Shown here: in pieces, positions 5,416-39,578 of the stretch
How the letters are laid out: the number at the start of each line of letters is the position of its first letter
How positions within the stretch are numbered: position 1 is the stretch's first letter
The notes under the pieces: generated by a model
Told to the model about the DNA's origin: nothing
The model's database searches: none
What the model saw: the letters and a program-made list of their open reading frames with translations, nothing else
From: Chloroflexi bacterium CFX3
GTDB taxonomy: Bacteria; Chloroflexota; Anaerolineae; Aggregatilineales; UBA2796
Assembly: GCA_030263685.1 (NCBI GenBank)
Contig: SZPJ01000003.1
Span: 336,073-400,072, forward strand
Length of the DNA: 64,000 nucleotides
Direction of reading: 5' to 3'
Made by a program: the position numbers and the translations under genes

Positions 5416-8127
5416 TTAGTTCCCGCAGAAGGGGAAGCACGAGTCGTCTGGCAGGGTTGCCGTTGGTGGCGGCGTCGCTGTTGCCACAGGTGGCGGTGTG
5501 TTGGTTGCCAACTGTGTTGGTGTGCGCGTTGGTGTGTTGGTGCGCGTTGGTGTGTTGGACGGCGTGCGCGTTGGCGTGCGCGTCGGCGTGTTGGAGGGTA
5601 TTGGCGTGATGGATGGCGTCGGCGTGCGCGACGGCGTCAGCGTTGGCGTACGTGTATTGGTTGGCGTGCGCGTCGCTGATGGTGTAAAGGTTGCTGTGTT
5701 GGTCGGCGTGCGCGACGGTGTGAAGGTGCGCGTTGGTGTGTTGGTGCGCGATGCCGTTGGTGTGATGGACGGCGTGAAGGTGCGCGACGGCGTCTGCGTG
5801 ATCGTCGGCGTGTTAGTTGGCGTGCGCGTTGGTGTGCGCGTCGGCGTGTTCGACGGCGTGAAGGTGCGCGACGGCGTGAAGGTCTGCGATGGTGTGAAGG
5901 TGCGCGACGGCGTCAGGGTCAGGGTTGGCGTCGTGGTGAAGGTGCGCGATGGCGTCAGGGTGTTGGTTGCCGTGCCGATAGGCGTTGCCGCCGGCGGCAA
6001 CGTGATCACGCAGCCGTTATCGAGCAGCACCGACGAGCCGTTGAAGTCCGAGACGAACACCAAGCCTGGGAACTGCGATTGCAAGTTCTGGTTAGTGCCA
6101 TCAAAGTCCACCCAGACGGCGTGCGAAGTGCCGACATCAATCGAGGGCGAAGTGCGCCACTCAGCGTCGGTAGAGCGCCCAACCGTGGGCGAGCCTGTCT
6201 CGCCGGGATTCTTCTCCCACATCACCACCGTATCTGTGGCGAAGGCGTTCGCGCCTTTTGCCGCCATGCGCGGTAACGACATGCCGACAAAGTATTGTTT
6301 CCAGAACATATCAAAGCCGACGATGGAGACGGGACGGTTGTAGGCAAGGTCGTTGTGGGCAAACTGGAAGCGCACCACACCGAAGGTCTGGAAGGTGACG
6401 AAGGTAAACGAGTAGAGCGCGCAGTTTGGCGCAGTGGTTGGCGTTGGGCTTGGCGGCGTTGCCGTCGGAATGCCTGTGTAGCGCACCACGCAGCGCTGAC
6501 CGCCGCCTGTGCCGTCCTCGGTGAGTGTGATCTCAAGTTCGGTGAAGTCGTGCCGTGTGAAGATGGTGTTGAGATCAGCAGGTCCGTTCACAAGGCGCAT
6601 TTGCCAAGTGGTGGTGGTGCCGGTGCCTGGCACTGCACGGTTCACCCAATTGGGCGCTGTGCCGTTCAGCCACACGGGACGGTTGCGGTCGATCACATCG
6701 CCCGAACGCACACGCGGCTGGCTGGTATCGTAATACCAGATATTCGAGGGCTGCGAGCTGATCTTGACCTGATCAGGGTAGATGTTCGGGTAGATTTGGT
6801 TCTCCGTCCACGCTACGCGCATGGACTCGATGAACATCGGCCCTGGGTTGGTATTCTGAATATCCACCTGCACAAGGTTGTTCACAAGGCGCGGATCGCC
6901 AACGAAGCCAACGTTCGTGCAGCTTGGCGTTGCCGAAGGCGTCACCGTCCAAGAGGGCGTCAGCGAAGGCGTTTGGGAGGGTGTTATCGTGCGGGTGGGC
7001 GTCGCCGAGGCTGGACCCGAACCGCCGGGTGTGTTGCTTGGGCGCGGCGTGAAGGTCGGACCGCCAAGGTTAGGCAGTTCCAGCACACGCGCCGAACGGA
7101 AGACCTCGTTGATCATGGTGCGGCGTGCTTCAAGGCGGATGTAAGGTTCATCTACCAACGGCAGCGGCGTGATGAGTGGGTGATTGAAGTAGACAACCAC
7201 TTCCACAAAGTCGCCCGGTCCGCCCGGATCAAACTGATTGACGCCCTGCCGCAAGCTAAGATCGCCGCCGTAATCATTCAGGGCATTCATATCCACGCCG
7301 CCGAACTCGATGACTTCGTTGATCGTGCAGAGGCGGATGCCTTCTGCCTGATAGCCGTAGACTGCTTTGTTAGAGGCAGTGGTAACATGCGCCCGTTCGT
7401 TTTTGTAGCGCGGCGCGGTAGAGCTAAAGCGGCCATCGCCCAGCGCAAGGCGCGAACTGCACACAAAGACGTGGAACCAGCCCGACTGTGTGGAGCCATC
7501 GCCGCCCGGCTCAGTGTTGATGCCCGTGCCGGGAATGCGGTACCAGGGCGCTAACGCCAAGCCACCCGCACCCACACGCGCCGCCGTCGTCATGGAGACG
7601 AGGCGCAGCACGTCTTGACGCAGCCAGCGGTGTTCATCAATGCCGGGATCGCAATTAATGCCATTATAGCGAGAAGCGAAAAACGACTCATCATCAGGAC
7701 CCGGCGAAGGACCGGCAAACTGATCAAAATGGAAGCGGTCGCCATTGATGGTTGTGCCGGTTGGGTTGAAGGCACCGAACTGATCGCCAAAGCGGCACGG
7801 CACGCCGTCACCACTTTGCCCAGTCCCGCCTGTGCCATCTGCCCATGGGTCCAGCACATTGTTGGGAATGTGCGGCGTCCATGGGTTATCAATGTTGTTG
7901 AAAAGCTGCTGATCATAGCGCCCGGTGACGCCATAACGGGCAGCAGCGCGAGCAGCATTTTGGATGGTCAGCCACGCTTGAAAGATGCGCCCAAACTCGA
8001 TGATGCCCCAGATCAACATGAGCAGAATTGGCAGGGTCAGTGCGAATTCCACTAAGGTTTGCCCTCTGCGACGGGCGCGTTTCGTCGCAGAGGGTGGGGT
8101 GTTGGATTGGCGGCGAAGATTGAACAT
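5416..8127 (-). CDS. TadE-like pseudopilin-family protein, 903 aa, with a large extracellular region and a C-terminal Pro/Thr-rich repeat tail
   Basis: N-terminus '[29 protein letters not shown]' is a TadE-type TM segment. The C-terminal ~190 aa are (T/S)P(T/S)(R/N)T repeats ending '[10 protein letters not shown]'. A GGGGGA RBS precedes the start. Confidence 0.6.
5455..5995. repeat. Degenerate 6/9/18-nt tandem repeat tract, coding for the PT-rich tail
   Basis: Reiterated GGCGTGCGCGTTGGTGTG-type units on the + strand encode TPTRTPT... on the - strand. Confidence 0.6.
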
Positions 8128-10824: not shown

Positions 10825-12021
10825 CTATTCTTCAGGTGTGGCAGTTGCCTGCGCGCCGGGCGCAGGGAAAAAGCCGAAAACGTGAAAGACGGGATCGTTG
10901 GCAAGCGAGCCATCCGCACCGCTGAAGAAGCCGCCGCCGAAGAGCGCCGCAATCGGTTGGAAGAAGCGCGGGTGATACTGCCAATACATCTCCACCAACA
11001 CCAAACCGCCGTTCGGACGGTAGACTTCTAGACCAGTGGTGGAAAGTGTGAGGTTCAACCGTGTTTCGACATCCTGCACCGTGAACTTTGAGCCTAAGCA
11101 GTAGTTATTGGGATCGCTGTTGTTATAGGTACCAATGGCGTTGCCGGTAAAGACAAAGCCGCGGATGCCTTGCGAAACGGTGGTGATATGCTCGCGTGGG
11201 TCGTCATAGCGCGGGTCGCCAACGGTGAGACCGTAGCCGAGTTCGTCAATATCGGCAGGGCGGCCAGTCCGCCACATTGAATAGACATCCGGCGTTTTGT
11301 AGTCAAACGGGTCACGGTTATCGCCGCCGCCTTCGGTGGTGGTGCAGTAGCGGTTATCACGTGGATAGCGCCCGGTTACGCGCATGTAGAGGCGGTTGCT
11401 CGGCACTGTTGGACCGAACGTCCCACCTGTCACCGATCCTTTGAAAGGTTTGTTGAAATCCATCATGGTGTATGAAAAGGCAGAGACGACAATATCATTC
11501 TTGGTAAATTCGGCGGTGCGGTCAGGGTTGCCGGGCGGAATGTCACCATCCCCACCCCATGGGCGCGCATCCTCAAATTCCATCGGATACATGCTCAAGA
11601 TGATCTGGCAGACCACTGCATCAAAGAAGCCGTAATTGCCCTCAGGACCGACCGTGTAGTTATAGAGTGCGGCGTTCGGTCCACGCGGCACGCGCCGATT
11701 TTGGTTGATGTTATCGCCCAAGTTGTACAGGTGGCTGACGCCGTCGGACGGCACAAAGGTATCGCAATCAAGGCGATTATAGTTGCGCGTATCCGCATCA
11801 TTCCAAAAGACCGGGCTCAGGTTAGCACCCCGACGCCCTGCCTCGCGCACAAGGTCTAGCATGGTTAAATAATAGTTCATGGCAAAGCCCATCTCTGCCA
11901 AGCCCAACACCATCAAGATGAGGATCGGGAAGGTGATCGCCGATTCGACGATGCTCTGCCCTTTGGCGCCGCTTGGCTTCCCATCTAAGATGTTGATTAT
12001 TTTTCCCCACGTTTTTCGCAT
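10825..12021 (-). CDS. TadE-like pseudopilin-family protein, 398 aa
   Basis: N-terminus 'GQSIVESAITFPILILMVLGLAEMGFAMNYY' is a TadE-type TM segment. It is the first gene of three co-directional, tightly spaced genes. Confidence 0.6.
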   Translation of the reverse strand: MRKTWGKIINILDGKPSGAKGQSIVESAITFPILILMVLGLAEMGFAMNYYLTMLDLVREAGRRGANLSPVFWNDADTRNYNRLDCDTFVPSDGVSHLYNLGDNINQNRRVPRGPNAALYNYTVGPEGNYGFFDAVVCQIILSMYPMEFEDARPWGGDGDIPPGNPDRTAEFTKNDIVVSAFSYTMMDFNKPFKGSVTGGTFGPTVPSNRLYMRVTGRYPRDNRYCTTTEGGGDNRDPFDYKTPDVYSMWRTGRPADIDELGYGLTVGDPRYDDPREHITTVSQGIRGFVFTGNAIGTYNNSDPNNYCLGSKFTVQDVETRLNLTLSTTGLEVYRPNGGLVLVEMYWQYHPRFFQPIAALFGGGFFSGADGSLANDPVFHVFGFFPAPGAQATATPEE

Positions 12022-12260: not shown

Positions 12261-13175
12261 ATGACCAACCAAGAACTTACCCAACAGGCAGCGGTTGTCG
12301 CTCATGCGCCGCTAATCGCCGTCATTCCCGCCTTCAACGAAGATCGATTCATTGCCAGCGTGGTGATCAAAGCGCGCCGCCACGTTGATCAGGTGTTGGT
12401 GGTGGACGATGGCTCGCAGGATGAGACGGCGTGGCTTGCTGAATGCGCCGGCGCAGAGGTCATCCGCCAAGCCAACGGCGGCAAGGCAGCCGCCCTCAAC
12501 ACAGGCTTGGCAGCCGCACAGAGGCGTGGTGCCGCCGCAGTCGTGCTGCTGGATGGCGATGGGCAGCACAATCCGAACGATATTCCGCGCCTGCTGGCAC
12601 CCATTCAAGCAGGCGCGGCGGATTTGGTGGTCGGTTCGCGCTTTATGGGCTTGCCAAGCAACACGCCGCGCTGGCGGATCGTTGGGCAGCACGCCCTGAC
12701 CGCTATCACGAATGCTGCCTCTGGCGTGCCACTCTCAGATTCACAGAGCGGCTTTCGGGCGCTTTCGCAGCGGGCGCTGAACCTGATGAATTTCACGTCG
12801 CTGGGCTTCTCGGTCGAATCCGAGATGCAGTTCTTGCTGCGGAAACACAGCTTGCAGGCGCTTGAAGTGCCGATCAGTGTGAACTATGATGAGAAGCCGA
12901 AGCGCAATCCATTCGCGCACGGCTTGCAAGTCCTCACGGGTGTTTTGCGTTTGGTCGGGCAGCACCGCCCGTTGTTCTTCTTCGGCGTGGCGGGCGCGCT
13001 CTCCATCCTGATCGGCTTGGTATTGGGCGCCAATGTGGTTGCCACTTACAACACCTATTCATCACTCGCGCTTGGCACCGCCCTGATCGCTATTACCTTC
13101 TGCTTGATCGGTGTCTTTGCCATCTTCACCGGTGTGATCCTGCACACCATCCGTGCTTATATGACTGAGCGCTAG
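12261..13175 (+). CDS. GT2-family glycosyltransferase (polyprenol-phosphate mannose/glucose synthase-like) with C-terminal TM helices
   Basis: 'IAVIPAFNEDRFI', 'VLVVDDGSQDET' and 'VLLDGDGQH' (the DxD region). The C-terminal hydrophobic helices are typical of DPM1/GtrB-like enzymes. Confidence 0.8.
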   Translation: MTNQELTQQAAVVAHAPLIAVIPAFNEDRFIASVVIKARRHVDQVLVVDDGSQDETAWLAECAGAEVIRQANGGKAAALNTGLAAAQRRGAAAVVLLDGDGQHNPNDIPRLLAPIQAGAADLVVGSRFMGLPSNTPRWRIVGQHALTAITNAASGVPLSDSQSGFRALSQRALNLMNFTSLGFSVESEMQFLLRKHSLQALEVPISVNYDEKPKRNPFAHGLQVLTGVLRLVGQHRPLFFFGVAGALSILIGLVLGANVVATYNTYSSLALGTALIAITFCLIGVFAIFTGVILHTIRAYMTER

Positions 13176-13834
13176 AAGTTGCCCGCCGCCTGATGCGCCT
13201 GCCTAATCGGTTCGGGCAAGCGGTAGCGTGTTGTACATGCCATAACAATTTGGCGGGCGCTCTCCAGATCAATCAGATGCCCAACCGAGACGTAAAGCGG
13301 CTTGACATTGCTGCGCGTCCGCAGCACAACGCCGATCACTTCGCCTTTGTCGTGTAGGGCGGCGTAGCTGCCGCGCCCGTGTGGCGGCTCAACATAAGTG
13401 CCAATGTAGGGCGTTTTGCCACAACCGATGCTTGGTTTGTTCAGCCACAAGCCCATGTGGCAGGCAATCCCAAAGCGGCGCGGATGAATTTTGCCCATGC
13501 CATCGAACAGGAACACATCCGGTGTGTGGCGGAGCAGCGCAAACGCCTTAAGCAGCACCGGCGCTTCACGGAAGCTGAGCAAGCCGCTAATGTATGGGAA
13601 GGGCGTTTCAAGCTGCGCAGTAACTGTTTCGATCACCTTGAGCGCGGGAAAATTCAGCACGACGACCGCTGCCTGCGAGAGGTTATCCTTCACGCTAACA
13701 TCCACACCTGCCACAGAGCCCACCGCTTCCAGCGGCAGCGGCAGCCTATCCACCACTTGGGCTGCCAAACGGCGCTGAAGATCGACAGCTTGGTTTGGCG
13801 TCAGCGCCCACTCGTGCAGAGTCCGAATCTCCAC
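13172..13834 (-). CDS. nfi: Endonuclease V (deoxyinosine 3' endonuclease)
   Basis: 'VAGVDVS', 'YISGLLSFREAP' and 'LFDGMGKIHPRRFGIACHMGL' are EndoV motifs, and the length is 220 aa. Confidence 0.85.
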   Translation of the reverse strand: MEIRTLHEWALTPNQAVDLQRRLAAQVVDRLPLPLEAVGSVAGVDVSVKDNLSQAAVVVLNFPALKVIETVTAQLETPFPYISGLLSFREAPVLLKAFALLRHTPDVFLFDGMGKIHPRRFGIACHMGLWLNKPSIGCGKTPYIGTYVEPPHGRGSYAALHDKGEVIGVVLRTRSNVKPLYVSVGHLIDLESARQIVMACTTRYRLPEPIRQAHQAAGNF

Positions 13835-13837
13835 GCG

Positions 13838-16555
13838 CTAGTTTTCCTCTGCCAGCCATTGGCGCGCCATGCCTGCCAAATCTGCCAGCGGTGCGCGCCG
13901 AATGGTGCTTGGCGGCAAACTGTCAAGGAAGGTTTGCGCGTAATCGCGGCTGGTCATGCGCTTATCAAGGATGACCACCACGCTGCGTGCTGCCCTGCCT
14001 TCGATCAGCCTGCCGATTGCCTGCCGAAAGCGCAGTACAGCCGATGGCACAGCGTAATGTTGGAAGGCATTTTCGTAGCCTTCGCCACGTGCCACAAAGA
14101 GCGGATCGTTTGGCACGGCGAACGGCAAGCGTGTCAGCAGCACAGCGCGCAAGTCGTCCTCATGAAAGGCGACATCATCCCAGACGCCGCGCACGCCAAG
14201 CAACACGGCTTTTTCGCCCAACGCACGGAAGTTTTCGAGCAGGGCGCTCTGGCTGGTGCCATCCGATTGATCCAACACGCTGATGTTGCCCAGCTTCAGG
14301 CGTGCGGCGATGTTCTGCGCGGATTGCCGCAACTGCGTAAAGCTGCTGAACAGACCGAGCAGGCGCCCATTGGTGGCAACTGCCAACTCGATGACGGCGC
14401 GCTCAAGGTAGCGTGCGTAGCGCTCACCTTCGGTTGGCTCTGGTGCATCGGTCGGCAGGAAGATCAAGGCACTGCGAGACTCAGCACTGGCACTGGGCAA
14501 AACCTGAGTAGCGGTCAGCGGCGGCAGCCCAAGCCGTTCCCGCAAATAGCTGAAATCGCCGCCAACGCGCAAGGCTGACCCTGTGATCAGCGCGGCATCC
14601 AACGTTTGCCACAAGTGCGTTTGCAGCAGTGCGCCGGGTTGCAAAGGCGCGCTGTGCAGCGTCAGCCGATTGGCACGCTCAGGGTCGGTGCTGATTTCCG
14701 CCCAAAAGACGAACTCTGGGCGCTGTCCGCTGATGCAAAGTTCCAGCAAGCTGTGCAGACGCCGCACAGTATGGGCAGCGCCTTCCGTGCGATAGGCGAG
14801 ATCGCGCGGCAGCCCGTATTTTTCATGGTAGATCACCAGTTGCTTTGCCAACTGCCCTAGCGCTTCGGCAATCGCTTCAGTGAACTGGCTGAGGATGCTC
14901 CACGCGGCGCGCACTTGCCCAAAGGCTGCCTTGCCGCGCAGATCGTTAGTGAGGCGAATGTTTAGCGCATAGTCGCTTGGGCGCGAGTCTGTGGTTGCCT
15001 CCAGAAAAGCCTGTAGCGCACGGAACAAGCTATCCAAGTGGTAGGGTACTTGGGTCGCAGCGTCGGCAAGGTTGCTGCAAAAGCGCGTCAGCTGACCATC
15101 TGCCTTTGGCGGCAAACTGCCTTTGGCGGCTGCCAACACATCACCGATCAAGCCGCGCTGTGCGTTGTTAATTTCTGCCAACTGCCGCTTGATGCGGGCT
15201 GCATCAAGGCGTATGTGTTGGCTTTCGGTGGCAAGGTCTTCCAACAGATTTGCCTCATCCGCCACAAGGTGCCTAACGTTCGGCAAGAGTGGATCGTGTC
15301 CGCTGCTCTCGGCTGCCAACGTGCCGTGATCCACGATGATCAGGTGTGCGGCGGCTGCCTGCTGCCGATCACGGTGCATTGGGCAAGTGCCGCCCATCTG
15401 CGTTTGGCAGCGCGCCACAGTGCAGTTTTCTGCCTCTGCGTTCAACTGCGCCCATGCCACATACTCACCGCCGCCGCGTATGGAAGGTTGCTCGGCGTGC
15501 GCGGTGCCGCCCTCTGCCAACCAAATTAGCGTTTTTGCCAGCAGGCGCAGCTCTTCGACGGTCTGCACACCTTGCCGCCGCAAAATGGCAAGCCGCGATG
15601 GACAGAGATATTCGGCACGGCGGCGCAAAAACTGAGCGCGCAGATTAGGGTAAGCGGCTTGCAGGGCGGGCAGATCGCGCTCGCGCAGGCGTTGGCGGAA
15701 TGTTTCGCCGCCATGCGCGATGACCAACGGCGTGCCGTGCCGCATTGCCCACTGCGCGGCCGCCTCAAGGTAGGGCGGCGCTTGGTCGGTGCTGGGCGGC
15801 GTTTCTAACATCAGGAGTTGGTGTGCGTTGAAGGTGGCGCTGATCAGCTCAGGGATAGCATCCGTTGCTGGGATTAGATCGGGCTGCGGCGCAAGCGGTG
15901 CTGGCTCAGGTGCAGCGCGGAACGCCTCTGCCAGCGGATCAGCAAGGCTCAACGGATCGGTACGGCGTTCGCGCAAGGCTGCCTCAAAGGGCAGTTTACC
16001 ACGCCAATTCAGGTTTGCCGCCAAGCGTGCGATCTCACGCAGTAAGCTGATCGGCAGCGCCACCAACTTTTGCCACAAGGCATGATACAGCCGTCCGCTG
16101 GCAACGGCATCGGTCAGGGCGCGGTGATAGTCGCCTTCCGGTGCGATGTCGAAGACCTGCATCAGTGCGTTGAGGTTATAGCGGCTGGCAGTCGGCAGCA
16201 GGACGGACGCCAATTCGTAGGTATCTACTGCCTGATTTTCGGTCAGCACCTTCTGTTTGTGCAAAAAGCGCAGGTCAAACTCGACGTTATGCCCAACCAG
16301 CACCGCGTCAGCGACGAATGCGGTCAAAGCGGGCAACACTTGGGCAATTTTCGGTGCGCCGATCATATCTTCATTGCGAATGCCAGTGATGTCGGTGACG
16401 CGGGCGGGAATGGTGACGGAAGGGTTGACCAATGTGCTATAGGTTTCGATCATCTCGCCGTCGCGGAATTTTGCCGCGCCAATCTCGATGATCTGCGCGT
16501 CGGCAGGGTCGAGTCCGGTCGTCTCAAGGTCAAGGGCGACCAATATACCGCGCAT
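13838..16555 (-). CDS. dinG: DinG-family ATP-dependent helicase with an N-terminal DnaQ-like 3'-5' exonuclease (DEDDh) domain
   Basis: Exonuclease motifs Exo I 'LDLETTGLD', Exo II 'GHNVEFDLRFL' and Exo III 'YHRALTDAVA' are followed by an ~700-aa SF2 helicase body with a DinG-like C-terminus. The start is placed at 'MRGILVALD' (16555), not at the ORF-track start (16648). Confidence 0.8.
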   Translation of the reverse strand: MRGILVALDLETTGLDPADAQIIEIGAAKFRDGEMIETYSTLVNPSVTIPARVTDITGIRNEDMIGAPKIAQVLPALTAFVADAVLVGHNVEFDLRFLHKQKVLTENQAVDTYELASVLLPTASRYNLNALMQVFDIAPEGDYHRALTDAVASGRLYHALWQKLVALPISLLREIARLAANLNWRGKLPFEAALRERRTDPLSLADPLAEAFRAAPEPAPLAPQPDLIPATDAIPELISATFNAHQLLMLETPPSTDQAPPYLEAAAQWAMRHGTPLVIAHGGETFRQRLRERDLPALQAAYPNLRAQFLRRRAEYLCPSRLAILRRQGVQTVEELRLLAKTLIWLAEGGTAHAEQPSIRGGGEYVAWAQLNAEAENCTVARCQTQMGGTCPMHRDRQQAAAAHLIIVDHGTLAAESSGHDPLLPNVRHLVADEANLLEDLATESQHIRLDAARIKRQLAEINNAQRGLIGDVLAAAKGSLPPKADGQLTRFCSNLADAATQVPYHLDSLFRALQAFLEATTDSRPSDYALNIRLTNDLRGKAAFGQVRAAWSILSQFTEAIAEALGQLAKQLVIYHEKYGLPRDLAYRTEGAAHTVRRLHSLLELCISGQRPEFVFWAEISTDPERANRLTLHSAPLQPGALLQTHLWQTLDAALITGSALRVGGDFSYLRERLGLPPLTATQVLPSASAESRSALIFLPTDAPEPTEGERYARYLERAVIELAVATNGRLLGLFSSFTQLRQSAQNIAARLKLGNISVLDQSDGTSQSALLENFRALGEKAVLLGVRGVWDDVAFHEDDLRAVLLTRLPFAVPNDPLFVARGEGYENAFQHYAVPSAVLRFRQAIGRLIEGRAARSVVVILDKRMTSRDYAQTFLDSLPPSTIRRAPLADLAGMARQWLAEEN

Positions 16556-16660
16556 AGCGACTTGTATCCGTTCTAGCCGAGCAAGGGCGCGGCATAAGCA
16601 TATATGAAAAACGCCGTGCAGTATAGCACGGCGCACTACACAGGGCAATTTCAGGGCGAT

Positions 16661-17047
16661 TTAGGCTTGCAGGGGTTCAGCGCGGCAGTAGGCAAGCGCT
16701 TCTTCTGCGGTGGCGAAAACTTTTGCCATTTCAAAGCTGCCATACTGCCGTTGGGTGATGGCTTGGGCAGCCAACTCAACGAACTTCCCTGAGCCGATAA
16801 TCACAAAGCGCACAGGAATGCTGCCGAAACTTTGCCGTAATGTGCTGAGGGACTGTACCAAGATATCAAAGGTGATCGGAAATTCGCGTGCATCGTTGAT
16901 CGTATAAAACGGCTTGCCTTGTACTTGCTGGGAAAAAGCGATGATGGCAGCGCCGGCGGTTTGCAAATCTAGATCAGGATCAACGGGCATCTGATAGCGT
17001 AGGAATAGGATGTGTTCATCAACGTTTTGTTCAATCGCAACGGGCAT
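16661..17047 (-). CDS. Small α/β protein (128 aa), copy 1 of 3 tandem paralogs; STAS-like or receiver-like fold, function unknown
   Basis: Strong AGGAGG RBS. The C-terminus 'KVFATAEEALAYC' is STAS-like. It is paralogous to the two upstream ORFs. Confidence 0.6.
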   Translation of the reverse strand: MPVAIEQNVDEHILFLRYQMPVDPDLDLQTAGAAIIAFSQQVQGKPFYTINDAREFPITFDILVQSLSTLRQSFGSIPVRFVIIGSGKFVELAAQAITQRQYGSFEMAKVFATAEEALAYCRAEPLQA

Positions 17048-17078
17048 GTTTAAGCCTCCTTTTATAAGGCAGATTAGG

Positions 17079-17465
17079 CTAGGAAGGTTTTGTCAGTTCA
17101 GCGTGGCAGTAGGCAAGCGCTTCTTCTTCGGTGGCAAACACTTTTGCCACCTCAAAACTGCCATACTGCCGTTGGGCAACGGCTTGGGCAGCCAACTCAA
17201 CGAACTTCCCTGAGCCAATGACCACAAAGCGCACCGGAATGCCCACCAGTGAACGGCGCACCAAATCCAGCCCTTCAGTAACAGTGTCGAAGGTCAGGTC
17301 AAATTCGCGCACGTCAGCAATTACGAAGAAAACGCCTTGCACCTGATGCGAAAACGCGATAATTGACTGAATAACGTTCGCTACGTCGCGCTCAGGATCA
17401 ACAGGGTTTACGTAGCGCGCCATCAAAATACCCGTCTGGACGTTCGGCTCAATCTGAATAGGCAA
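17079..17465 (-). CDS. Small α/β protein (128 aa), copy 2 of 3 tandem paralogs
   Basis: TTG start with a GGAAGGA RBS. About 60% aa identity to copy 1. 'VRFVVIGSGKFVELAAQAVAQRQYGSFEVAKVFATEEEALAYC'. Confidence 0.6.
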   Translation of the reverse strand: MPIQIEPNVQTGILMARYVNPVDPERDVANVIQSIIAFSHQVQGVFFVIADVREFDLTFDTVTEGLDLVRRSLVGIPVRFVVIGSGKFVELAAQAVAQRQYGSFEVAKVFATEEEALAYCHAELTKPS

Positions 17466-17497
17466 TTGGATGTTCCTTCCGCTTACAATTTCGGTAG

Positions 17498-17917
17498 TTA
17501 ATCAGACTTCTGAAGCTCCGAACGGCAATAGGCAAGCGCTTCTTCTTCGGTGGCAAGGGCGCGGGCTGCCTCACAGCCGCCACACTGCTTTTGCGGGATG
17601 GCACGGTTGCCCATCTCGACCAGTTCACTATCGCCGATGGTCACGAAGCGCATCGGCACTTGCGCCAAAGAGCGGCGCACCATGTCCAAACCGTCTACCA
17701 TTGCGTCAAAGGTGATCGGGATACCGCGCAAATCCGAGACGGCAAAGAAGGTTGAGCGCACCTCCGTAGCGAAATCGGCAATGGCTTGCACAACATTCTC
17801 AGCGCCGCTAAGCGGCATCTGGTAGCGTAGGACTAAAATACGTTCGTCAACATTTGGCTCAATCTGAATAGGTACACACCCTTTCACTAGGAAACGAAGG
17901 CTGTGTATACAGTACAA
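17498..17917 (-). CDS. Small α/β protein (~130-139 aa), copy 3 of 3 tandem paralogs, the most divergent
   Basis: 'PIQIEPNVDERILVLRYQMP...ALATEEEALAYC'. It carries a CGGC motif in place of YGSF. The start is ambiguous: TTG at 17917 with an AAAGG RBS, or GTG at 17887. Confidence 0.55.
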   Translation of the reverse strand: MYCIHSLRFLVKGCVPIQIEPNVDERILVLRYQMPLSGAENVVQAIADFATEVRSTFFAVSDLRGIPITFDAMVDGLDMVRRSLAQVPMRFVTIGDSELVEMGNRAIPQKQCGGCEAARALATEEEALAYCRSELQKSD

Positions 17918-18020
17918 CAGCCTTTCTGTGAAAGTACATTACATTCGCTAAATTGTGAGGGAACTGTGATGTATTGGCGCGCAATACTTCTCTTAGTGCG
18001 CCGATATAGGCGGGCTATGA

Positions 18021-19064
18021 TTAGTGGGCGCGTGTGGCGCGCCGTGCTGCCAAGCCAACGATCAGGTTTGCCAGCAGTGCTTGCAGCAGCACATAGCCTA
18101 AGAATGCCAAGCCAATGAAGATGCCGTAATCGTAATCTGCCCACATGCGCTGCACATAGGGCAAATGGAGCGCAGTCAAGCCTAGATCGCCTTCTGCAAT
18201 GCCGAAGAACACACCTAGCCAGCCGAGCGTCGGTGACGGTGCGTTGCCGGCGAAAGAAGCATTCAGCGCGCCGAACGGACTCAAAGTGAGGGCTGAAGCG
18301 CCCACCCACAGCGCCCAACCCGTGATCAGGATGCGTCCTACCACCAAGCCGGACTGCCCTAGCGCACTGCTCAGCCGCGTGCGCGCCAAGGTGCCGATCA
18401 ACATGCCAAGCGCGGCGTCGAAGGCGAGCGCCGTAAAAGGTGCGATCAAGGCTGCCGTCATGCCCAAAGCAGTGATAATTATGCCGCTAGTCACACCGAT
18501 AGACTCGGCCATATCTCGCGCTAGATACGGCTCACCAAACGGGACAGTGCCGCCGATCAGAATGTCAATATATTTACCTTGAAAGGTGGTCAGGTCGTAG
18601 AGCGCGATCAAGATAAAGAGGATGCGTGCCAGCGTCAGAATGATTAGAACAGGCAGCAGGCGGTAAAAGGCGGCTGCCCAACGCGCTTTCATGGTCAGCA
18701 GCGCGCCATCGGTGGTGATCTTGAGCGTATCCCATGTCTGTTGGCGTTCTTCCGTGGCAATCACGCCAATGGTGGCGCTCATCGCCACAAGGCGCATCAG
18801 AAGTTGCAGTGCGATCAACGCCCAGTAGAGCGTCAGGTAAATGGCATCAAAGCGGTTGGCAGTTTCGATGGGCTGTGTGCCAAAGCGTGTGGCAATTATC
18901 CAGCCGCCCAGCGGCAGCAGTGCAATCAGAAAAGCAATGCTCAGCCAGCGCAAAATTTGGTTGCCGCGTGAGGTGCGCCGCCCTTCGCGCAAGAGCAGAT
19001 AGCGCATAATGGGATGGTCGGGGCGGGCAAAGGCGGGCAATTGAGCGTAAAACCGTCGCAGCAT
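18021..19064 (-). CDS. Polytopic integral membrane protein, function unknown
   Basis: Eight or more hydrophobic helices over 347 aa. It lies directly upstream of, and co-directional with, the paralog triplet (gap ~100 nt). Confidence 0.5.
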   Translation of the reverse strand: MLRRFYAQLPAFARPDHPIMRYLLLREGRRTSRGNQILRWLSIAFLIALLPLGGWIIATRFGTQPIETANRFDAIYLTLYWALIALQLLMRLVAMSATIGVIATEERQQTWDTLKITTDGALLTMKARWAAAFYRLLPVLIILTLARILFILIALYDLTTFQGKYIDILIGGTVPFGEPYLARDMAESIGVTSGIIITALGMTAALIAPFTALAFDAALGMLIGTLARTRLSSALGQSGLVVGRILITGWALWVGASALTLSPFGALNASFAGNAPSPTLGWLGVFFGIAEGDLGLTALHLPYVQRMWADYDYGIFIGLAFLGYVLLQALLANLIVGLAARRATRAH

Positions 19065-19293
19065 AGCTTAGAGCCTCGATCTCTTTGAGTGTGCTAGGCA
19101 GCATTGTACCCATAATCTACCGAAAGGCGAAAATCGCCGTGCGGGGCGGGCTTTAAGGTAAGGCAAATCTTTTGGGCTTGTTATGGGCGATTCGCACAAT
19201 ATTGTCAGGATAGACCACACCCTTTACGCTCCGTTTTTGCGCCGCACTGCCAAGTTGGGTAGGATTGCCCACGCTTACCATAAGGAGTCTACA

Positions 19294-19866
19294 GTGGCAA
19301 AAGTACACGAGCAGATTACCGACGAGCTGCGCGCTTGGATTGAGCAGCAGCGCCTTTTTTTTGTTGCCAGCGCACCCCTAACTGCCGATGGGCATATCAA
19401 CCTCTCGCCCAAAGGGCATGACTGCTTGCGCGTGCTGGACGCACATACCGTTGGCTACTTAGACTTGACCGGCAGCGGCAACGAGACTTCTGCCCACATT
19501 TTGGAGAATGGACGCCTAACCCTGATGTGGTGCGCCTTTGAAGGTGCGCCGCGTATTCTGCGCCTTTTTGGGCGTGGCGAGGTCGTGCTGCGCGATACAC
19601 CGCGTTGGGCAGCCCTTGCGCCGCATTTTCCACTGGCAAGCGATGTCGGTGCGCGCCAAATCGTGCTGAACCATGTGGAGCGCGTGCAGACTTCGTGCGG
19701 CTTTGCCGTGCCGCTTTTCACTTATGAGGGTGAGCGCGATGCCCTTCGCAAGTGGTCAGCAGTGAAAGGCGAGGCAGGCGTTAGCGCCTATTGGGAAGAA
19801 AAGAACGTGCAGAGCATAGACGGCTTGCCAACGCCCTTAGGACAACACATCAGCAGCGAGGCATAG
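19294..19866 (+). CDS. Pyridoxamine 5'-phosphate oxidase-like FMN-binding split-barrel protein
   Basis: 'RLFFVASAPLTADGHINLSPKG' and 'GRLTLMWCAFEG' are PNPOx-family patterns. The GTG start has an AAGGAG RBS 6 nt upstream. Confidence 0.65.
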   Translation: MAKVHEQITDELRAWIEQQRLFFVASAPLTADGHINLSPKGHDCLRVLDAHTVGYLDLTGSGNETSAHILENGRLTLMWCAFEGAPRILRLFGRGEVVLRDTPRWAALAPHFPLASDVGARQIVLNHVERVQTSCGFAVPLFTYEGERDALRKWSAVKGEAGVSAYWEEKNVQSIDGLPTPLGQHISSEA

Positions 19867-24299: not shown

Positions 24300-25778
24300 T
24301 TAATCCATGCTGTTCACGAAAACGTCCTGACGCTGCGGCGCTTCGCGCTCGAATTCGCCAAGGTTAATGCGGCTAAGGATGAACAACGTCACCACAAAGC
24401 CAACGCTCTGGATCAAATATACGCTGCCATAGGCAACTGCCTTGTTGCCGCCCACAAAGACCAGCGCCACATCAAAGAGGATGCCGCCTAAGGCGACGCC
24501 TGAGCCACGCGCCAACGTCGAGGCGACCGTCCACAAGGCGAGGTAAAGCCCGGCCCCCCAAACACGGGTCATCGCCATCATCAGGCCGAGCGTGCCAACT
24601 GTCCACATGCCTAACCCCAAGCCCATCGTCACCAAACCGATGGTCACCAACGGGCGAATGTGCAGCACTGCACAGAAGGTGAACATCACAAAGGTGATGA
24701 TGAGCATGATGACGCCCCAGCGCGAGAGCGATATATTGTTCACCCGCTGCGGAAAGCGGCGCCCAGCGAACAAGCTCAGCACGATTGATAGCAAGGTCAT
24801 GCTGCCCCAGTAGGCAGAAAAGCGGTTCGTCGTTGCCAGCGGCATCCCGAATACTTCGCCGGCAAATGGCTCCAGCAGCACATCTTGCGCGTAAAACAAA
24901 GCGGTGGTCATCAGCAGGAACAGGAAGAACAAGCGTGTTTGGCGGCTTGCCCACACCTGCCTAATCGTCTGCCAAAAGGGCGTGGCTGCCTCAGGTGTGC
25001 CGTCAGTGCGCTGCTTAATCGGCGTTTCTTCGCCAATGAGCGAGAACACCCACAAGCCCATCATCACCGCTGGCGCAATCAGCATCAGCGAGAGGAAGCC
25101 ATCCCGCGAATATTCTGGCAGCAAGCGGCTGTACAGCACACCGGAGACGGCAAAGCCAAGGATCAGGAAGAACCAAATCACGCTGACGGCACGAGTACGC
25201 TGATGAGCAGGTGTGCGGTCATGCACCAACGATAGGAAGGTGGTGCTGCTGAAGGTTGAGCCAACGCTGAACAGCACGAGGGAAACCACCACACCCAGCC
25301 AGCCGAGCGCACTGCCTGCATTAGTGGTAACGGTAATGTTCATCCGTTCCAGCGAAAAATCGCGCAGCCATGGATTATAGCCGCCGGCAAGCTCCAGAGT
25401 CGAGATACCTAACAGCACATAGCTGAGCGCCATGACCAACCTGCCGCCCCACACATAGGGTAAGCGCTGATAGCCGCGCCAATTGGTGACATCAGAGCGC
25501 CGTCCAACCCAAATCGAGAGCGGCGCAAGGAAGTAGCGCAGTGCCAACAGCAGCGCGATTGGCGTTGCCGCAAAGCCTAGTTCCTTGATCATGATGCGAT
25601 TCCAGACGCCGGACGCCAAAATATCGGCAAGCGACGAGCCAATGTGGAAGGTCCCGATCTTGAGATTACGCAGCATGGTAAGGTCGCGCGGGCTGCTCTC
25701 GGCGCGTTCGGCAACTTGTTCAAGCGGCGGCGTGGCAACCTCAAGCGGTGCAGCACGGCTGTTCAGTTCTGCTTGCAT
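24300..25778 (-). CDS. MFS transporter of the PucC/LhaA (BCD, bacteriochlorophyll-delivery) family
   Basis: N-terminus 'MLRNLKIGTFHIGSSLADILASGVWNRIMIKELGFAATPIALLLALRYFLAPLSIWVGRRSDVTNWRGYQRLPYVWGG' matches the PucC-family signature region. It has about 12 TM segments. Confidence 0.6.
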   Translation of the reverse strand: MQAELNSRAAPLEVATPPLEQVAERAESSPRDLTMLRNLKIGTFHIGSSLADILASGVWNRIMIKELGFAATPIALLLALRYFLAPLSIWVGRRSDVTNWRGYQRLPYVWGGRLVMALSYVLLGISTLELAGGYNPWLRDFSLERMNITVTTNAGSALGWLGVVVSLVLFSVGSTFSSTTFLSLVHDRTPAHQRTRAVSVIWFFLILGFAVSGVLYSRLLPEYSRDGFLSLMLIAPAVMMGLWVFSLIGEETPIKQRTDGTPEAATPFWQTIRQVWASRQTRLFFLFLLMTTALFYAQDVLLEPFAGEVFGMPLATTNRFSAYWGSMTLLSIVLSLFAGRRFPQRVNNISLSRWGVIMLIITFVMFTFCAVLHIRPLVTIGLVTMGLGLGMWTVGTLGLMMAMTRVWGAGLYLALWTVASTLARGSGVALGGILFDVALVFVGGNKAVAYGSVYLIQSVGFVVTLFILSRINLGEFEREAPQRQDVFVNSMD

Positions 25779-27220: not shown

Positions 27221-29083
27221 CTAAGCATTCACCTGTGCAGCATCCTCAGCGGCGGCATCATCCGCAGCCGCAAATTGGCGCTGGTGCAATGCCGTATAAA
27301 CGCCATCTCGCGCTAAGAGTTCGGCGTGTGTGCCATCCTCCACAATGCGCCCACCTTTCATCACCAAGATGCGATCCGCCTCACGGATGGTACTCAACCG
27401 ATGTGCGATCACAAGGCTGGTGCGTTCGCGGAGCATTTGCCGCAAGCCCTGCTGGATGAGTTCTTCCGTCTCGCTATCAATATTGCTGGTTGCCTCGTCC
27501 AGCACCAAAATGCCCTCAGGGCTGTGCAGCAGGGCGCGTGCCAACGCCAGCAATTGGCGCTGACCTTGCGAAAGGTTACCGCCGCCGGGCAGCAGCACAT
27601 GATCGTAGCCGCCTGCCAAACGCTCGATGAACGGCGCCGCGCAAGCAACCTCAGCGGCGGCGCGCATCTGAGCATCGGTGATCTTTGGGTTGAACAGGCG
27701 CAGATTATCCGCCACCGTGCCGTTGAAGCAGTACGGACTCTGCGGCACGACGGCAACCATCCGCCGCAAGTCGCCAAAGGCGATCTGGCGAACATCCACG
27801 CCGTCAATCAGAATGCGCCCTTTGACCACATCGTAGAAACGCGCCAACAAGCCCGCCAACGATGTCTTGCCGGCGCCCGTCGCGCCGACGATTGCCACAA
27901 ACTGCCCGCTTGGGATGTGCAGATCAATGCCGCGCAGCACCGGCGCGCCTTCTTCATAGTGAAAATGGACGCCCTCAAAGCGCACGTCACCGCGCACGGC
28001 TGTGATCGGCGTCGGCTGCTCAGGCTCGGTGAGCGTTGGCTCAACACGCAGCATCCGCGCAATGCGCTCGCCGGCCGCCAGTGCCGTTTGAATCTGTGCG
28101 AATTGTTCAGCAAGGTTCAGGATCGGATCAAAGCTGCGCTGTTGATACTGAATGAAGGCGATCAGCGTGCCAAGCGTTGCCCAGCCCGCCAAGACGCCCG
28201 ATCCGCCGCCATACAGCACCATCCCTAAACCGATAGCCGTCATCAACTGCAAAATTGAGGCGTAGACCGTGTACTGATCGCGCAGCCGCATATGCGTATC
28301 GCGCCGTGTGCTGTTCAGCGACTCGAATTCTTGAAAGCTGAGTTGCTGCCTGCCAAAAAGCTGCACCACCAACATGCCGTTGAACTGCTCATTTAGAAAA
28401 GCGAGTGTATCGGCAACCAAGCGGTGCAAAAAGCTGGACGTGCGCCGAATTTGGTTGCGGAAGAAAGCAGTCGCCGCCGTCATCACAGGCAGCACTGCCA
28501 GCGCAATCAACGCCAACTGCCAATTGATTACAAACATCGTGATAACAATGCTCACCAACAGCACAAGGCTGCTCACCACCATGATGAAGCTGGTCGAGAC
28601 CAACTCGGTGAGGGCTTCCACATCGTTGGAGAGCCGTGCCACAATCTGCCCAACCGGCGTTGTATTAAAGTAGCGCATATCTTGGCGCAGAATGTGTTCA
28701 AACAAGCGTTGGCGTAAGTTCAGCAGCGCCGATTGCCCAACCGTCTGCAATAGGTAGAGGTAGGCAAAGCGCAGCGCAAAGACGAGCAAAATTGAGCTGA
28801 AGTAGATGACGCCGAGCGGAATTAAGCCGCTTAAATCGCCCCTTGTGATCGGATCATCCACTGCCAACTGAATCAGGTAAGGCGGCAGCAGCGAAAGCCC
28901 TGTGACGATCAGCAGCAAGGTGAACACGATAATCAACTGCCGCCAATAGGGACGCAAGAACTGCCCAAGCATCCACAGCAAGTAACGGTCAGTGATCTTG
29001 ACGGTTGCAGCAGCCTCAGCAGGCGCAGCGTTTGGCGGTCGAATCACGGCTGAATGCTCCAACTTAGACGGGCTAACAATCAT
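27221..29083 (-). CDS. ABC exporter, fused TMD-NBD (MsbA/multidrug type)
   Basis: Six TM helices, then Walker A 'GATGAGKTS', signature 'LSQGQRQLLALARAL' and Walker B 'ILVLDEATS'. Confidence 0.85.
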   Translation of the reverse strand: MIVSPSKLEHSAVIRPPNAAPAEAAATVKITDRYLLWMLGQFLRPYWRQLIIVFTLLLIVTGLSLLPPYLIQLAVDDPITRGDLSGLIPLGVIYFSSILLVFALRFAYLYLLQTVGQSALLNLRQRLFEHILRQDMRYFNTTPVGQIVARLSNDVEALTELVSTSFIMVVSSLVLLVSIVITMFVINWQLALIALAVLPVMTAATAFFRNQIRRTSSFLHRLVADTLAFLNEQFNGMLVVQLFGRQQLSFQEFESLNSTRRDTHMRLRDQYTVYASILQLMTAIGLGMVLYGGGSGVLAGWATLGTLIAFIQYQQRSFDPILNLAEQFAQIQTALAAGERIARMLRVEPTLTEPEQPTPITAVRGDVRFEGVHFHYEEGAPVLRGIDLHIPSGQFVAIVGATGAGKTSLAGLLARFYDVVKGRILIDGVDVRQIAFGDLRRMVAVVPQSPYCFNGTVADNLRLFNPKITDAQMRAAAEVACAAPFIERLAGGYDHVLLPGGGNLSQGQRQLLALARALLHSPEGILVLDEATSNIDSETEELIQQGLRQMLRERTSLVIAHRLSTIREADRILVMKGGRIVEDGTHAELLARDGVYTALHQRQFAAADDAAAEDAAQVNA

Positions 29084-34426: not shown

Positions 34427-35771
34427 CTAATTGCCGCCCGACTTCGTGTCGTCAAGGCGCACAGCGCGCTGCACATTCCGCAATTGGCGCAGGCCGCCAT
34501 TGAACAGCCACACCGGAATCATCAGCAGAATGCCGACCGCGCTCACAATTTGGAAGCCGAGACTGCGCCGTTCAAGCGCCACTTCTTCCACACGCGAAGG
34601 CGCTTCATCGTCACCAGCGCGCCCTTGCATCATCACCGCACCGACCACAATCGTCACAATGGCACCACATATCCAAGCGAAGGTGCCAGCCGCTTGCCCA
34701 AAGGCATCGCCTGCCAACACAGCGACTGCCGTCCAGCCGGCAGCCACCAGCGCCAACGGAAACAGCACCTTCCAGCCCAGCGCCATCAAGCGGTCGTAGC
34801 GGATGCGCGGCAGCGTTGCACGCAGCCAGATCATGCCCATCAGGAATAGGATGACCTTCACGCCGAACACAATCGGACCCAAGATCGGGATTTGGTCAAC
34901 CAAGATGAAGTGATAGCCGCCGAAAAAGAGCGCCACAGCCACCACGCTGACCGAGATCATGCTGATGTATTCCGCCATGAAGAACAGGGCGAACTTCATG
35001 CCGCTGTATTCCGTGTGATAGCCGGCGGTCAGCTCTTGCTCTGCTTCGGGCAGGTCAAACGGCGCACGGTTTACCTCTGCCAGCAGCGCCACAAGCAAAA
35101 TAATCGCCGCAACAGGATTCTGGAAAACATACCAGCCCAAGATGGAAGGCGTCGCTTGTGAGTCCACAATCGTTTGCAGGCTCATCGAGCCAGTCACAAT
35201 AATCGGGATGGACATGCTGACGCCTAGGCTCAGTTCATAGCTAACCATCTGTGCTGAAGCGCGTAAGCCGCCCAACATGGAATACTTGTTGTTGCTTGCC
35301 CAGCCCGCCAACACAATGCCATAGCTGCCCAAGCTGAACCATGCCAGCATGAACAGAATGCCTACGTTTACATCGGTCAAGCCCAGCGGCACACGGTACC
35401 ACAAGCCGTCAAACCACGGGATGAGGATGGGCGGACCAAGCGGCACAACTGCCACCACCATAATTGCCGGGATCACTTTCAAGACGGGCGCAATCCAGAA
35501 GATAACGCGATCCGCGCTGCTTGGCGTCACGTCTTCTTTGAAGAATAGCTTGATGGCGTCGGCAATCGGAAACAGCAAGCCCAATGGACCTGCGCGATTC
35601 GGACCGAGCCGATCTTGAATGAAGGCGATAAAACGGCGCTCCAGCAGCGTGGTGTAGGCAAAGCCCGTCAGCAGTGTGATGAAGATCAACAAGCTGATAA
35701 CCACAGCACGGATCACGCCGCAGCCGCCCGAAGCGGCGCAGTCTATGATCAGGTTTGGATCGATGTTAAAC
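34427..35771 (-). CDS. nuoH: NADH-quinone oxidoreductase subunit H
   Basis: 'FIAFIQDRLGPNRAGPLGLLFPIADAIKLFFKED' is NuoH/ND1. The start is at MFNIDP, overlapping the nuoG stop by a few nt. Confidence 0.9.
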
Positions 35772-38246: not shown

Positions 38247-38640
38247 GAAAGTGTGCCTCCGTCTCTGGATTGTATACATCACGCTTTATCTGCACGTTTT
38301 CCACCAACATCAAGCCATATTTGCCAAGTGCCTTAAGTTGATCGAACACTGTGCGCGCACCTAGCTCACGGATGCTCTCACGAAGTGTTGCATCGTGAAC
38401 ATTGATGGTGTGAATATCTATTTGGTATGGGTAGACTTCAAACACAAGGTCGCCATCATTCTGAAGTGTGTGCGTGCCTAAGGCAAGCGCCCAACCCTGA
38501 TCAGAACGCAACGCCCGAAATGCGATATGGGAATTATCCTGAACAGGCTGCCATGTGATGCCAAGCAGTGTGCTAAGCTCCTCAGCAAACACATCAAGCG
38601 GTGTTTGGGCTTGAATAAAGATTGACAGGTCTCTAGACAT
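38239..38640 (-). CDS. Hypothetical 133-aa protein embedded in the nuo operon. Its stop overlaps the nuoG start as ATGGTTGA.
   Basis: Intact ORF with no recognisable motif. It overlaps the nuoG start by 8 nt, indicating translational coupling. Confidence 0.5.
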   Translation of the reverse strand: MSRDLSIFIQAQTPLDVFAEELSTLLGITWQPVQDNSHIAFRALRSDQGWALALGTHTLQNDGDLVFEVYPYQIDIHTINVHDATLRESIRELGARTVFDQLKALGKYGLMLVENVQIKRDVYNPETEAHFHG

Positions 38641-38733
38641 TAGGTTTCATCACTTCCTGCCACAGGGCTAAAATGGTGACTCACATCAAAAGAGTTTCCA
38701 ACTACACGCAACACATCTAGTTTACCCTCAATA

Positions 38734-39069
38734 TTATTGCACCCCTGAGATGCGCCGAAAAGCACGTTCAATCTCTAGTTCATCAAGTGCTGTACCACGC
38801 ACATCTAGAATAATGTGTCGCGCCTGTCCACCACCTCTTAACGCTTGCTGAACGCAGTTTAGGATAGTTTTACTGGTCGGGCTGGCAGCTAACCGCTTAA
38901 ACTCAGTCGGTACACCATCCACAAGAGCATCAGGGTGACGTCCATCCCCTGTTTCTGGTAGTGCTTTTACATGACATCCTCGTTCAACAAGATATATTGC
39001 CAAAGCTCGTTCATCTTCTGAGAACGCCCGTTCAGACTCGTCAATTGTACCTTGCAGTGGTAGCATCAC
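38734..39069 (-). CDS. Hypothetical 111-aa protein with a PD-(D/E)xK-like motif; small Hjc/YraN-like nuclease fold (tentative)
   Basis: 'RGCHVKALPETGDGRHPDALVDGVPTEFKRL' resembles the Gly-rich loop ... PD ... ExK arrangement of small restriction-endonuclease-fold proteins. Its start overlaps the upstream stop as ATGA. Confidence 0.45.
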   Translation of the reverse strand: MMLPLQGTIDESERAFSEDERALAIYLVERGCHVKALPETGDGRHPDALVDGVPTEFKRLAASPTSKTILNCVQQALRGGGQARHIILDVRGTALDELEIERAFRRISGVQ

Positions 39070-39578
39070 ACACTCTGTGTGCAGCGCCGCAGCCCTTCTA
39101 GGGCGCGTTCTGCCAGAATGCTGTGAATGTAGCCCCAGTCCGTCTCACCCGCCGCCGAAATCAGATGTAAGCCCCTCTGAAAATCTTCGGCTGCCGCCAC
39201 CTGATCGCCGTAGTCGAGCAGTGCCTCGCCGCGCAGCACATAGTTTATCGGATTATCGGGCGCGGCGGAAATCGCAAGTTCTAAGGCAAGGATGCGCTCC
39301 GTTAAATTATTTGCCCGTGCGGCTTGCCACCAACTCCGTTTCTTTGGCTTCTCTGCTTCATCCTCTAAAGCGACATCGGTTGGGACGGCGAATACGTCAG
39401 GCGCTAGCCATGCCTCCGAAAGTTCGGCTGGCACTTCAGGCGCACGCGCAGACTCGGTCAGATTTTCCGCCGAGTCCACCTCAGCCGCACGCCTTTCGCT
39501 GCTAGTCTCCATCCGCGGTGAATCGGCATCTTCGTTGGAGTCGGTTGATGTTGGCAGATTGCGTTCGACTTCAGACAT
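39066..39578 (-). CDS. Hypothetical 170-aa protein: acidic, low-complexity N-terminal half plus a C-terminal TPR-like helical hairpin
   Basis: N-terminus 'STDSNEDADSPRMETSSERRAAEVDSAENLTESARAPEVPAELSE' is rich in D/E/S. The C-terminus 'NYVLRGEALLDYGDQVAAAEDFQRGLHL' is TPR-like. It lies 61 nt downstream of the nuoF stop. Confidence 0.5.
   Translation of the reverse strand: MSEVERNLPTSTDSNEDADSPRMETSSERRAAEVDSAENLTESARAPEVPAELSEAWLAPDVFAVPTDVALEDEAEKPKKRSWWQAARANNLTERILALELAISAAPDNPINYVLRGEALLDYGDQVAAAEDFQRGLHLISAAGETDWGYIHSILAERALEGLRRCTQSV

Follow-up and report, generated by a model that had tools for sequence, protein, structure and literature searches.

The 64,000-nucleotide (nt) stretch of Chloroflexi bacterium CFX3 DNA analysed here, referred to as the window (contig SZPJ01000003.1, positions 336,073 to 400,072), carries at 16661-17917 a tandem array of three genes for small proteins that, according to structure modelling, belong to the STAS/SpoIIAA-like fold superfamily. 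The array directly follows a gene for a membrane protein predicted to resemble the permease of type V (ABC-2) ATP-binding cassette (ABC) exporters. The small proteins form a branch of their own within the STAS-fold superfamily, hitherto undescribed and not recognised at the sequence level by the Pfam STAS models. Tentatively, we read them as subunits with an accessory or regulatory role on the cytoplasmic side of a transporter based on the ABC-2-type permease.

No Pfam or NCBIfam model matched any of the three window proteins, even at E ≤ 1, and sequence searches of the PDB with close and broad family profiles returned noise only, with no STAS chain. A word-indexed search of 5.8 billion proteins recovered only 10 close clusters, all of 125-128 aa and all unnamed; an exhaustive hidden Markov model (HMM) search of 1.84 billion representatives gave 361 clusters at E ≤ 1e-3, 67 of them at E ≤ 1e-10. 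An earlier note, made from the letters of the window, had suggested that the family might be undescribed, and undescribed it is. Wider-family members are nearly all standalone proteins of 125-137 aa; wherever labelled they derive from Anaerolineae or from a 'Chloroflexi' metagenome-assembled genome, the rest being unclassified. Near-invariant positions in a 147-member alignment are P21, D51, Q98, Q100, Y101, G102 and A116, together with F59 (89%) and G84 (86%), and the family signature is the motif Q-x-Q-Y-G directly behind helix α3. One 130-aa member (P0097, from JGI; L015:6001-6393) bears the source name 'queuine/archaeosine tRNA-ribosyltransferase', which is almost certainly spurious; the Pfam TGT model matched a single family member only, at E 0.046.

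The predicted structure of copy 2, the protein used for modelling, has the α/β order β1-β2-α1-β3-α2-β4-α3-β5-α4 and can be superposed on solved STAS domains. By structure comparison the fold is closest to RsbS, SpoIIAA, RsbR and SiaC; in one structure search crotonase-type folds mostly rank below, and an independent Foldseek search returned RsbS (TM-score 0.62-0.69), then SLC26A2, SpoIIAA, SiaC and DUF3478, with a probability of about 1.0. At the sequence level, the STAS (PF01740) and STAS_2 (PF13466) models matched none of the three window proteins at E ≤ 1 and none of the 147 relatives at E ≤ 0.1. Alignment of the family profile with Bacillus subtilis SpoIIAA and RsbV by hhalign gave a probability of 5% with an unreliable register, and no residue equivalence is claimed. 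PF11964 ('SpoIIAA-like', DUF3478; PDB 2q3l) matched 7 of the 147 members faintly, with a best E of 2.8e-4, and neither the window proteins nor the other 140 relatives reached E 0.1; it is accordingly a neighbour of the window family and not identical with it. The earlier note had proposed either a STAS-like or a receiver-like fold. The former stands at the level of the modelled fold, with no STAS HMM match, and the latter (CheY-like, PF00072) was rejected on fold and HMM evidence, there being no receiver domain among the structure matches listed.

The membrane protein encoded 5' of the array belongs to a family of 46 clusters, every one labelled 'hypothetical', whose sources are Anaerolineae, Aggregatilineales and 'Ca. 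Thermofonsia clade 1'. No Pfam model, the ABC2_membrane-type models included, matched at E ≤ 0.1 in 30 members, and an NCBIfam scan of the window protein was likewise empty. Its predicted structure is a type V fold, in which an N-terminal interface helix and a helical bundle can be superposed on Wzm, NosY and ABCG, and this points to a type V (ABC-2) exporter permease-like protein.

The permease and STAS-like genes occur side by side beyond the window. All fetched loci were scanned with HMMs and tblastn; within one clade the adjacency is strict, the STAS-like genes lying directly 3' of the permease gene on the same strand. Ordered by permease identity to the window (100%, three copies), the linked loci are L021 (100%, two copies), L007 (94%, two), L001 (94%, three), L002 (81%, one), L008 (81%, two), L010 (77%, one) and L004 (76% over a partial permease, one), giving copy numbers of 3, 3, 2, 2, 2, 1, 1 and 1. 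Upstream of the pair lies a gene for a PNPOx protein (window, L021), a MerR protein (L001, L007) or, in L002, L008 and L010, an uncharacterised 325-aa protein that is in some cases accompanied by a methylase, and downstream lie DinG-Nfi, ZnuA or others. The pair has outlasted three or more independent rearrangements on either side. Inclusion of dinG-nfi in the module was considered and rejected: the STAS-like gene accompanies the permease without dinG in L002, L008, L010 and L004; in L022 dinG directly follows the permease with no STAS-like gene between; and in the window the hairpin described below intervenes. Given the L022 arrangement, the array seems to have been inserted between a permease and a dinG that were already neighbours.

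In the window, the permease and STAS-like genes share one strand with spacers of 31-133 nt (31-32 nt between copies), and a terminator-like hairpin occurs only behind the last STAS-like gene, 27 nt past the copy 1 stop codon (RNA fold −22.4 kcal/mol, z −2.9 versus shuffles). This hairpin suggests that the permease-STAS transcription unit ends ahead of dinG. The earlier note's description of three head-to-tail open reading frames (ORFs), flanked co-directionally by a membrane protein and dinG-nfi, proved correct to the coordinate, everything lying on the minus strand (Table 1). Its estimates of identity, about 60% between copies 1 and 2 and about 45% for copy 3, compare with measured values against copy 1 of 61% and 46%, with 46 invariant columns; the family HMM matched the window copies at E values from 4e-33 (copy 3) to 4e-40 (copy 1), and the three-copy similarity is far beyond chance. 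Copy 1 has a strong Shine-Dalgarno sequence, AAGGAGG, 7 nt 5' of its ATG. In copy 3 the ancestral Met codon ATG is replaced by GTA, so that an upstream start is required, either GTG 17887 (129 aa, as in the L021 gene call) or TTG 17917 (139 aa); neither candidate has a convincing Shine-Dalgarno sequence. As to the downstream gene, the listed dinG ORF (TTG 16648, 936 aa) is probably over-extended: an ATG near 16555 (MRGILVALDLETTG...) fits the 913-aa L001 ortholog, and the hairpin (16634-16611) falls within the supposed N-terminal extension.

Table 1. Features of the STAS-like array and its immediate surroundings (window coordinates)
Feature	Position	Strand	Description or basis
STAS-like paralog, array position 1 (copy 3)	17498-17917	minus	125-aa conserved core
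STAS-like paralog, array position 2 (copy 2)	17079-17465	minus	ORF, 128 aa, TTG start
STAS-like paralog, array position 3 (copy 1)	16661-17047	minus	ORF, 128 aa, ATG start
Polytopic membrane protein, 5' of array	18021-19064	minus	347 aa; predicted type V (ABC-2) permease-like; without Pfam match
DinG-type protein (RNase_T + Helicase_C_2), 3' of array	13838-16648	minus	Pfam scan
Endonuclease V (Nfi)	13172-13834	minus	Pfam scan
Terminator-like hairpin	16611-16634	minus	9 bp, 7 G-C, 6-nt loop, T-run; pattern scan

The array has turned over while its members remained under selection. Position by position, the window array is orthologous to that of L001 (82%, 74% and 88% aa identity for positions 1, 2 and 3), and the triplication is therefore older than the split between the two. 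L007 has two position-2-type copies, and the second copy of L008 was gained independently. Duplication is also frequent in the wider family, where L030:4557-5384 holds two tandem copies and L028:3451-5387 and L029:150-2086 each hold two copies about 1.1 kb apart, with a YceI-like gene between them on the opposite strand. The ratio of nonsynonymous to synonymous substitution rates (dN/dS) against the L001 orthologs is 0.21 for position 1 (copy 3), 0.25 for position 2 (copy 2) and 0.19 for position 3 (copy 1), compared with 0.09 for the permease and 0.11 for DinG; all three copies are under purifying selection and evolve about twice as fast as these neighbours.

Copies 1 and 2 (16661-17465) are mosaic, with third-position identity of 28% in the first 80 alignment columns and 79% in the remainder. 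The synonymous divergence (dS) of their 3' parts amounts to 0.31 for the window pair and 0.06 for the L001 pair (L001:8001-8800), with the 5' parts saturated in both, which argues for independent, ongoing segmental gene conversion. The converted segment encodes α3, the Q-x-Q-Y-G loop, β5 and α4. Another, independent sample of the source species (L021; Logan SRR8466086, 720-3521, 99.6% nt identity to window 15841-19600) lacks one repeat unit of about 420 nt and reads permease, copy 3, a hybrid gene joining the first 96 residues of copy 2 to the last 32 of copy 1, and dinG. This two-copy array may be a genuine allele produced by unequal crossover, or else the assembly may have collapsed over the near-identical 3' segment of copies 1 and 2. 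The CGGC that the earlier note had seen in place of YGSF in copy 3 is real (QKQCGGCE versus QRQYGSFE) and recurs in L021; both Tyr101, which is 97% conserved, and Phe104 have become Cys. The L001 ortholog reads QKQYGAFE, so the motif is a novelty of this species and not a family trait. The altered start codon of copy 3 is likewise shared with L021 and missing from the L001 ortholog.

Such turnover raises the alternative that there is no functional link at all, a mobile and rapidly duplicating small gene having landed between permease and dinG in a single ancestor and been kept there by inertia, its copies redundant or drifting. The permease-dinG pair of L022, the ready changes in copy number, and the fact that copy 3 no longer has the ancestral start codon or two of the signature residues would all fit. 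We nevertheless judge this alternative unlikely: dN/dS is low in all three copies, the pair has been retained through repeated rearrangement on either side, and strand, spacing and the position of the sole hairpin are those of one unit. A defence system, brought to mind by the fast evolution and copy-number change, found no support, since PADLOC returned nothing for the three STAS-like proteins or the permease, and was otherwise empty save for generic DinG/DEDDh homology of the helicase.

If the STAS-like proteins are accessory subunits of an ABC-2-type transporter, the reading that we favour, they would be co-transcribed with the orphan permease and would dock on the transporter from its cytoplasmic side, binding either the permease or an ATPase whose gene lies elsewhere, physical interaction being the route by which they might regulate transport. 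The conserved, gene-converted C-terminal third of the protein could then be a common docking module, and the divergent N-terminal two thirds could give each paralog a distinct input or specificity.

Several observations weigh against this reading. Linkage is limited to a narrow clade, and permease homologs at 67%, 52% and 44% identity (L022, L012/13 and L014) have no STAS-like gene after them, so that common descent could account for some of the adjacency. No standalone ABC ATPase gene adjoins the permease in any locus examined, and an MlaB-type target is thus absent from view; the ABC ATPases of the window itself are a fused type IV exporter (27221-29083) and, from sequence only, an apparent ABC-F protein (49320-51344). 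Pattern matches are the only evidence for the terminator and promoter. Distant family members, moreover, are not found beside the ABC-2-type permease. In a small sample, comprising about 10 independent contexts and including a metagenome scan of 8 mostly short loci, the wider family showed no single conserved partner. Distant STAS-like genes adjoin a convergent pair of type IV ABC exporter half-transporters (ABC_membrane + ABC_tran) in L015:8480-12181, L017:6460-10107 and L018:3419-7009; at L015:6001-7243 the STAS-like gene is followed on the same strand by genes for a YgaP-like transmembrane protein and an extracytoplasmic function (ECF) sigma factor; in L025:2163-4382 and L024:2-592, two contigs of one species and hence a single observation, it lies beside a divergent Hanks Ser/Thr kinase with a fused RskA_C anti-sigma domain; and other distant members sit among metabolic genes. 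L015 and L017 also share a homologous GT-C-like membrane protein of about 740-790 aa, encoded divergently upstream; a kinase assignment for these large neighbours was considered and rejected.

The signalling neighbours of these distant members bear on a second alternative, namely that the window proteins are partner-switching modules, anti-anti-sigma-like or SiaC-like, that are toggled by phosphorylation at Thr58 and act in trans on a sigma/anti-sigma pair or some other effector with genes elsewhere, the permease adjacency being incidental. The fold is closest to that of RsbS, SpoIIAA, RsbR and SiaC, and canonical STAS switches are phosphorylated on a Ser/Thr at the N-terminus of α2 (PMC7367683). 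In the copy 2 model, Thr58, within the motif (I/L)TFD, caps the N-terminus of helix α2 (residues 59-72), a position that corresponds by topology, not by superposition, to the conserved phospho-Ser (Ser58) of SpoIIAA/RsbS (PMC7367683). Thr58 occurs in each of the three window copies and in 12 of the 13 close homologs, so that the earlier note's remark that no phosphorylatable Ser/Asp was obvious needs some correction. Across the 147 members, however, column 58 is T 30%, S 28%, D 12%, N 10% and G 7%, which looks like the classic helix-capping set rather than a conserved acceptor. A Pfam scan of 40 window genes found no HATPase_c anti-sigma kinase, no PP2C phosphatase and no sigma factor (the others, mainly EF-G-like, nuo-cluster and ABC-F-like ORFs, were judged by eye only), and there is none in the syntenic loci L001, L002, L004, L010 and L022. 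Together with the failure of the Pfam STAS models and of hhalign to connect the families, and with signalling neighbours amounting to two independent observations among about ten contexts, this leaves classic partner switching possible but unsupported, and we consider the second alternative as a whole somewhat unlikely. The note's overall interpretation, a STAS-like module for partner switching or transport regulation, is accordingly upheld as regards the fold and not as regards the classic switch.

Two further alternatives concern what STAS-fold proteins might do at a transporter. They could bind a small ligand or a lipid or acyl carrier, sensing a metabolite or transporter substrate or handing the substrate to the permease. 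We hold this to be quite improbable, as the conserved residues may, judging from the topology, lie on opposite edges of the sheet, and the neighbourhood points to no specific metabolite. More speculative still, and in our estimation very improbable, is a permease that works without an ATPase: the type V domain would now serve as a channel or secondary carrier, and between one and three STAS-fold subunits, each able to replace another, would cap and gate it on the cytoplasmic side. The fast-evolving N-terminal two thirds would supply differing regulatory inputs and the gene-converted C-terminal third a shared docking surface. If true, the system would be the ABC-2 counterpart of SLC26 carriers with their STAS domain.

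Among known systems, the favoured transporter-subunit reading finds its nearest likeness in MlaB of E. coli MlaFEDB, a protein that stabilises and regulates the ATPase MlaF by binding to it (PMC7367683). Like the window proteins, MlaB is a small, non-enzymatic, standalone STAS fold that is encoded with an ABC transporter, has a Thr at the α2 N-terminus, and evolves much faster than the transporter subunits (PMC7367683), as the window copies do relative to the permease. The differences are considerable: MlaB is a minimal STAS domain without β5 and α4, whereas the window proteins are modelled with the full five-strand, four-helix fold; the Mla operon encodes MlaF, the known MlaB target, whereas no ATPase gene is adjacent in the window; MlaE is not a type V ABC-2 permease; MlaB is not multi-copy; and no sequence similarity between MlaB and the window proteins is detectable. 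SpoIIAA, RsbV, RsbS and RsbR (PF01740/PF13466) differ from the window family in that the latter has no Pfam STAS match or significant profile similarity, no family-wide acceptor, no kinase, phosphatase or sigma factor genes nearby, and its own Q-x-Q-Y-G signature after α3. A second parallel for the favoured reading is offered by SLC26/SulP proteins, in which the STAS domain is fused C-terminally to a secondary carrier of UraA-type fold, whereas here it is a separate product, in one to three copies, beside an ABC-2-type permease. SiaC of the P. aeruginosa SiaABCD system resembles the window proteins in being a standalone STAS-like protein whose target is not a sigma factor (Foldseek probability 0.99, TM-score about 0.5). 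SiaC is encoded with the kinase SiaB, the PP2C phosphatase SiaA and the target SiaD, and the PDB titles of the Foldseek matches name the pairs SiaB-SiaC and SiaD-SiaC; counterparts of SiaA, SiaB and SiaD are absent from the window locus.

STAS domains are versatile switch modules. To our knowledge, MlaB-MlaF is the only established case of a standalone STAS protein regulating an ABC transporter. The authors of the MlaB study asked whether comparable regulation by small proteins is commoner (PMC7367683), and the present locus is a candidate second case, with an ABC class that differs (type V/ABC-2) and a phylum-restricted STAS-fold family absent from database descriptions. The array also exemplifies how small tandem genes can evolve through unequal crossover and through segmental gene conversion, the latter setting a conserved module apart from a diverging one. 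In practical terms, the annotation STAS-fold could be given to about 361 'hypothetical protein' clusters, one of which wrongly bears the name of a tRNA-ribosyltransferase, and the annotation ABC-2-type permease-like to about 46 membrane protein clusters without a Pfam match. We rate the significance as moderate, because the function is unproven and the fold is common, and this is not a new kind of system; the permease pairing and the clean segmental gene conversion nonetheless make the array a reasonable target for follow-up.

Other features of the window were noted in passing. Between NuoG-like (35766-38282) and NuoF-like (39640-40953) ORFs, both called by eye, three small ORFs occupy 38239-39578; the middle one (38734-39069, 111 aa) matches the CdiA_C toxin domain PF18451 at 3e-8, and the three may be a toxin/immunity insertion within the nuo operon. 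At 1213-2967, a 309-aa protein combining effector-associated domain 8 (EAD8) with a CHAT protease is followed by a SET-domain protein, an architecture typical of prokaryotic conflict systems. A PUCC/BCD-family major facilitator superfamily protein (PF03209, 6e-70), from a family linked to bacteriochlorophyll delivery, is encoded at 24300-25778; relatives of the source genome carry the labels 'Ca. Thermofonsia clade 1' and Aggregatilineales. Finally, a 903-aa ORF at 5416-8127, TadE-like by its N-terminal sequence and with a long C-terminal run of (T/S)P(T/S)xT repeats, adjoins an 882-aa ORF, whose L001 counterpart has a faint VWA match, and a TadE protein at 10825-12021.
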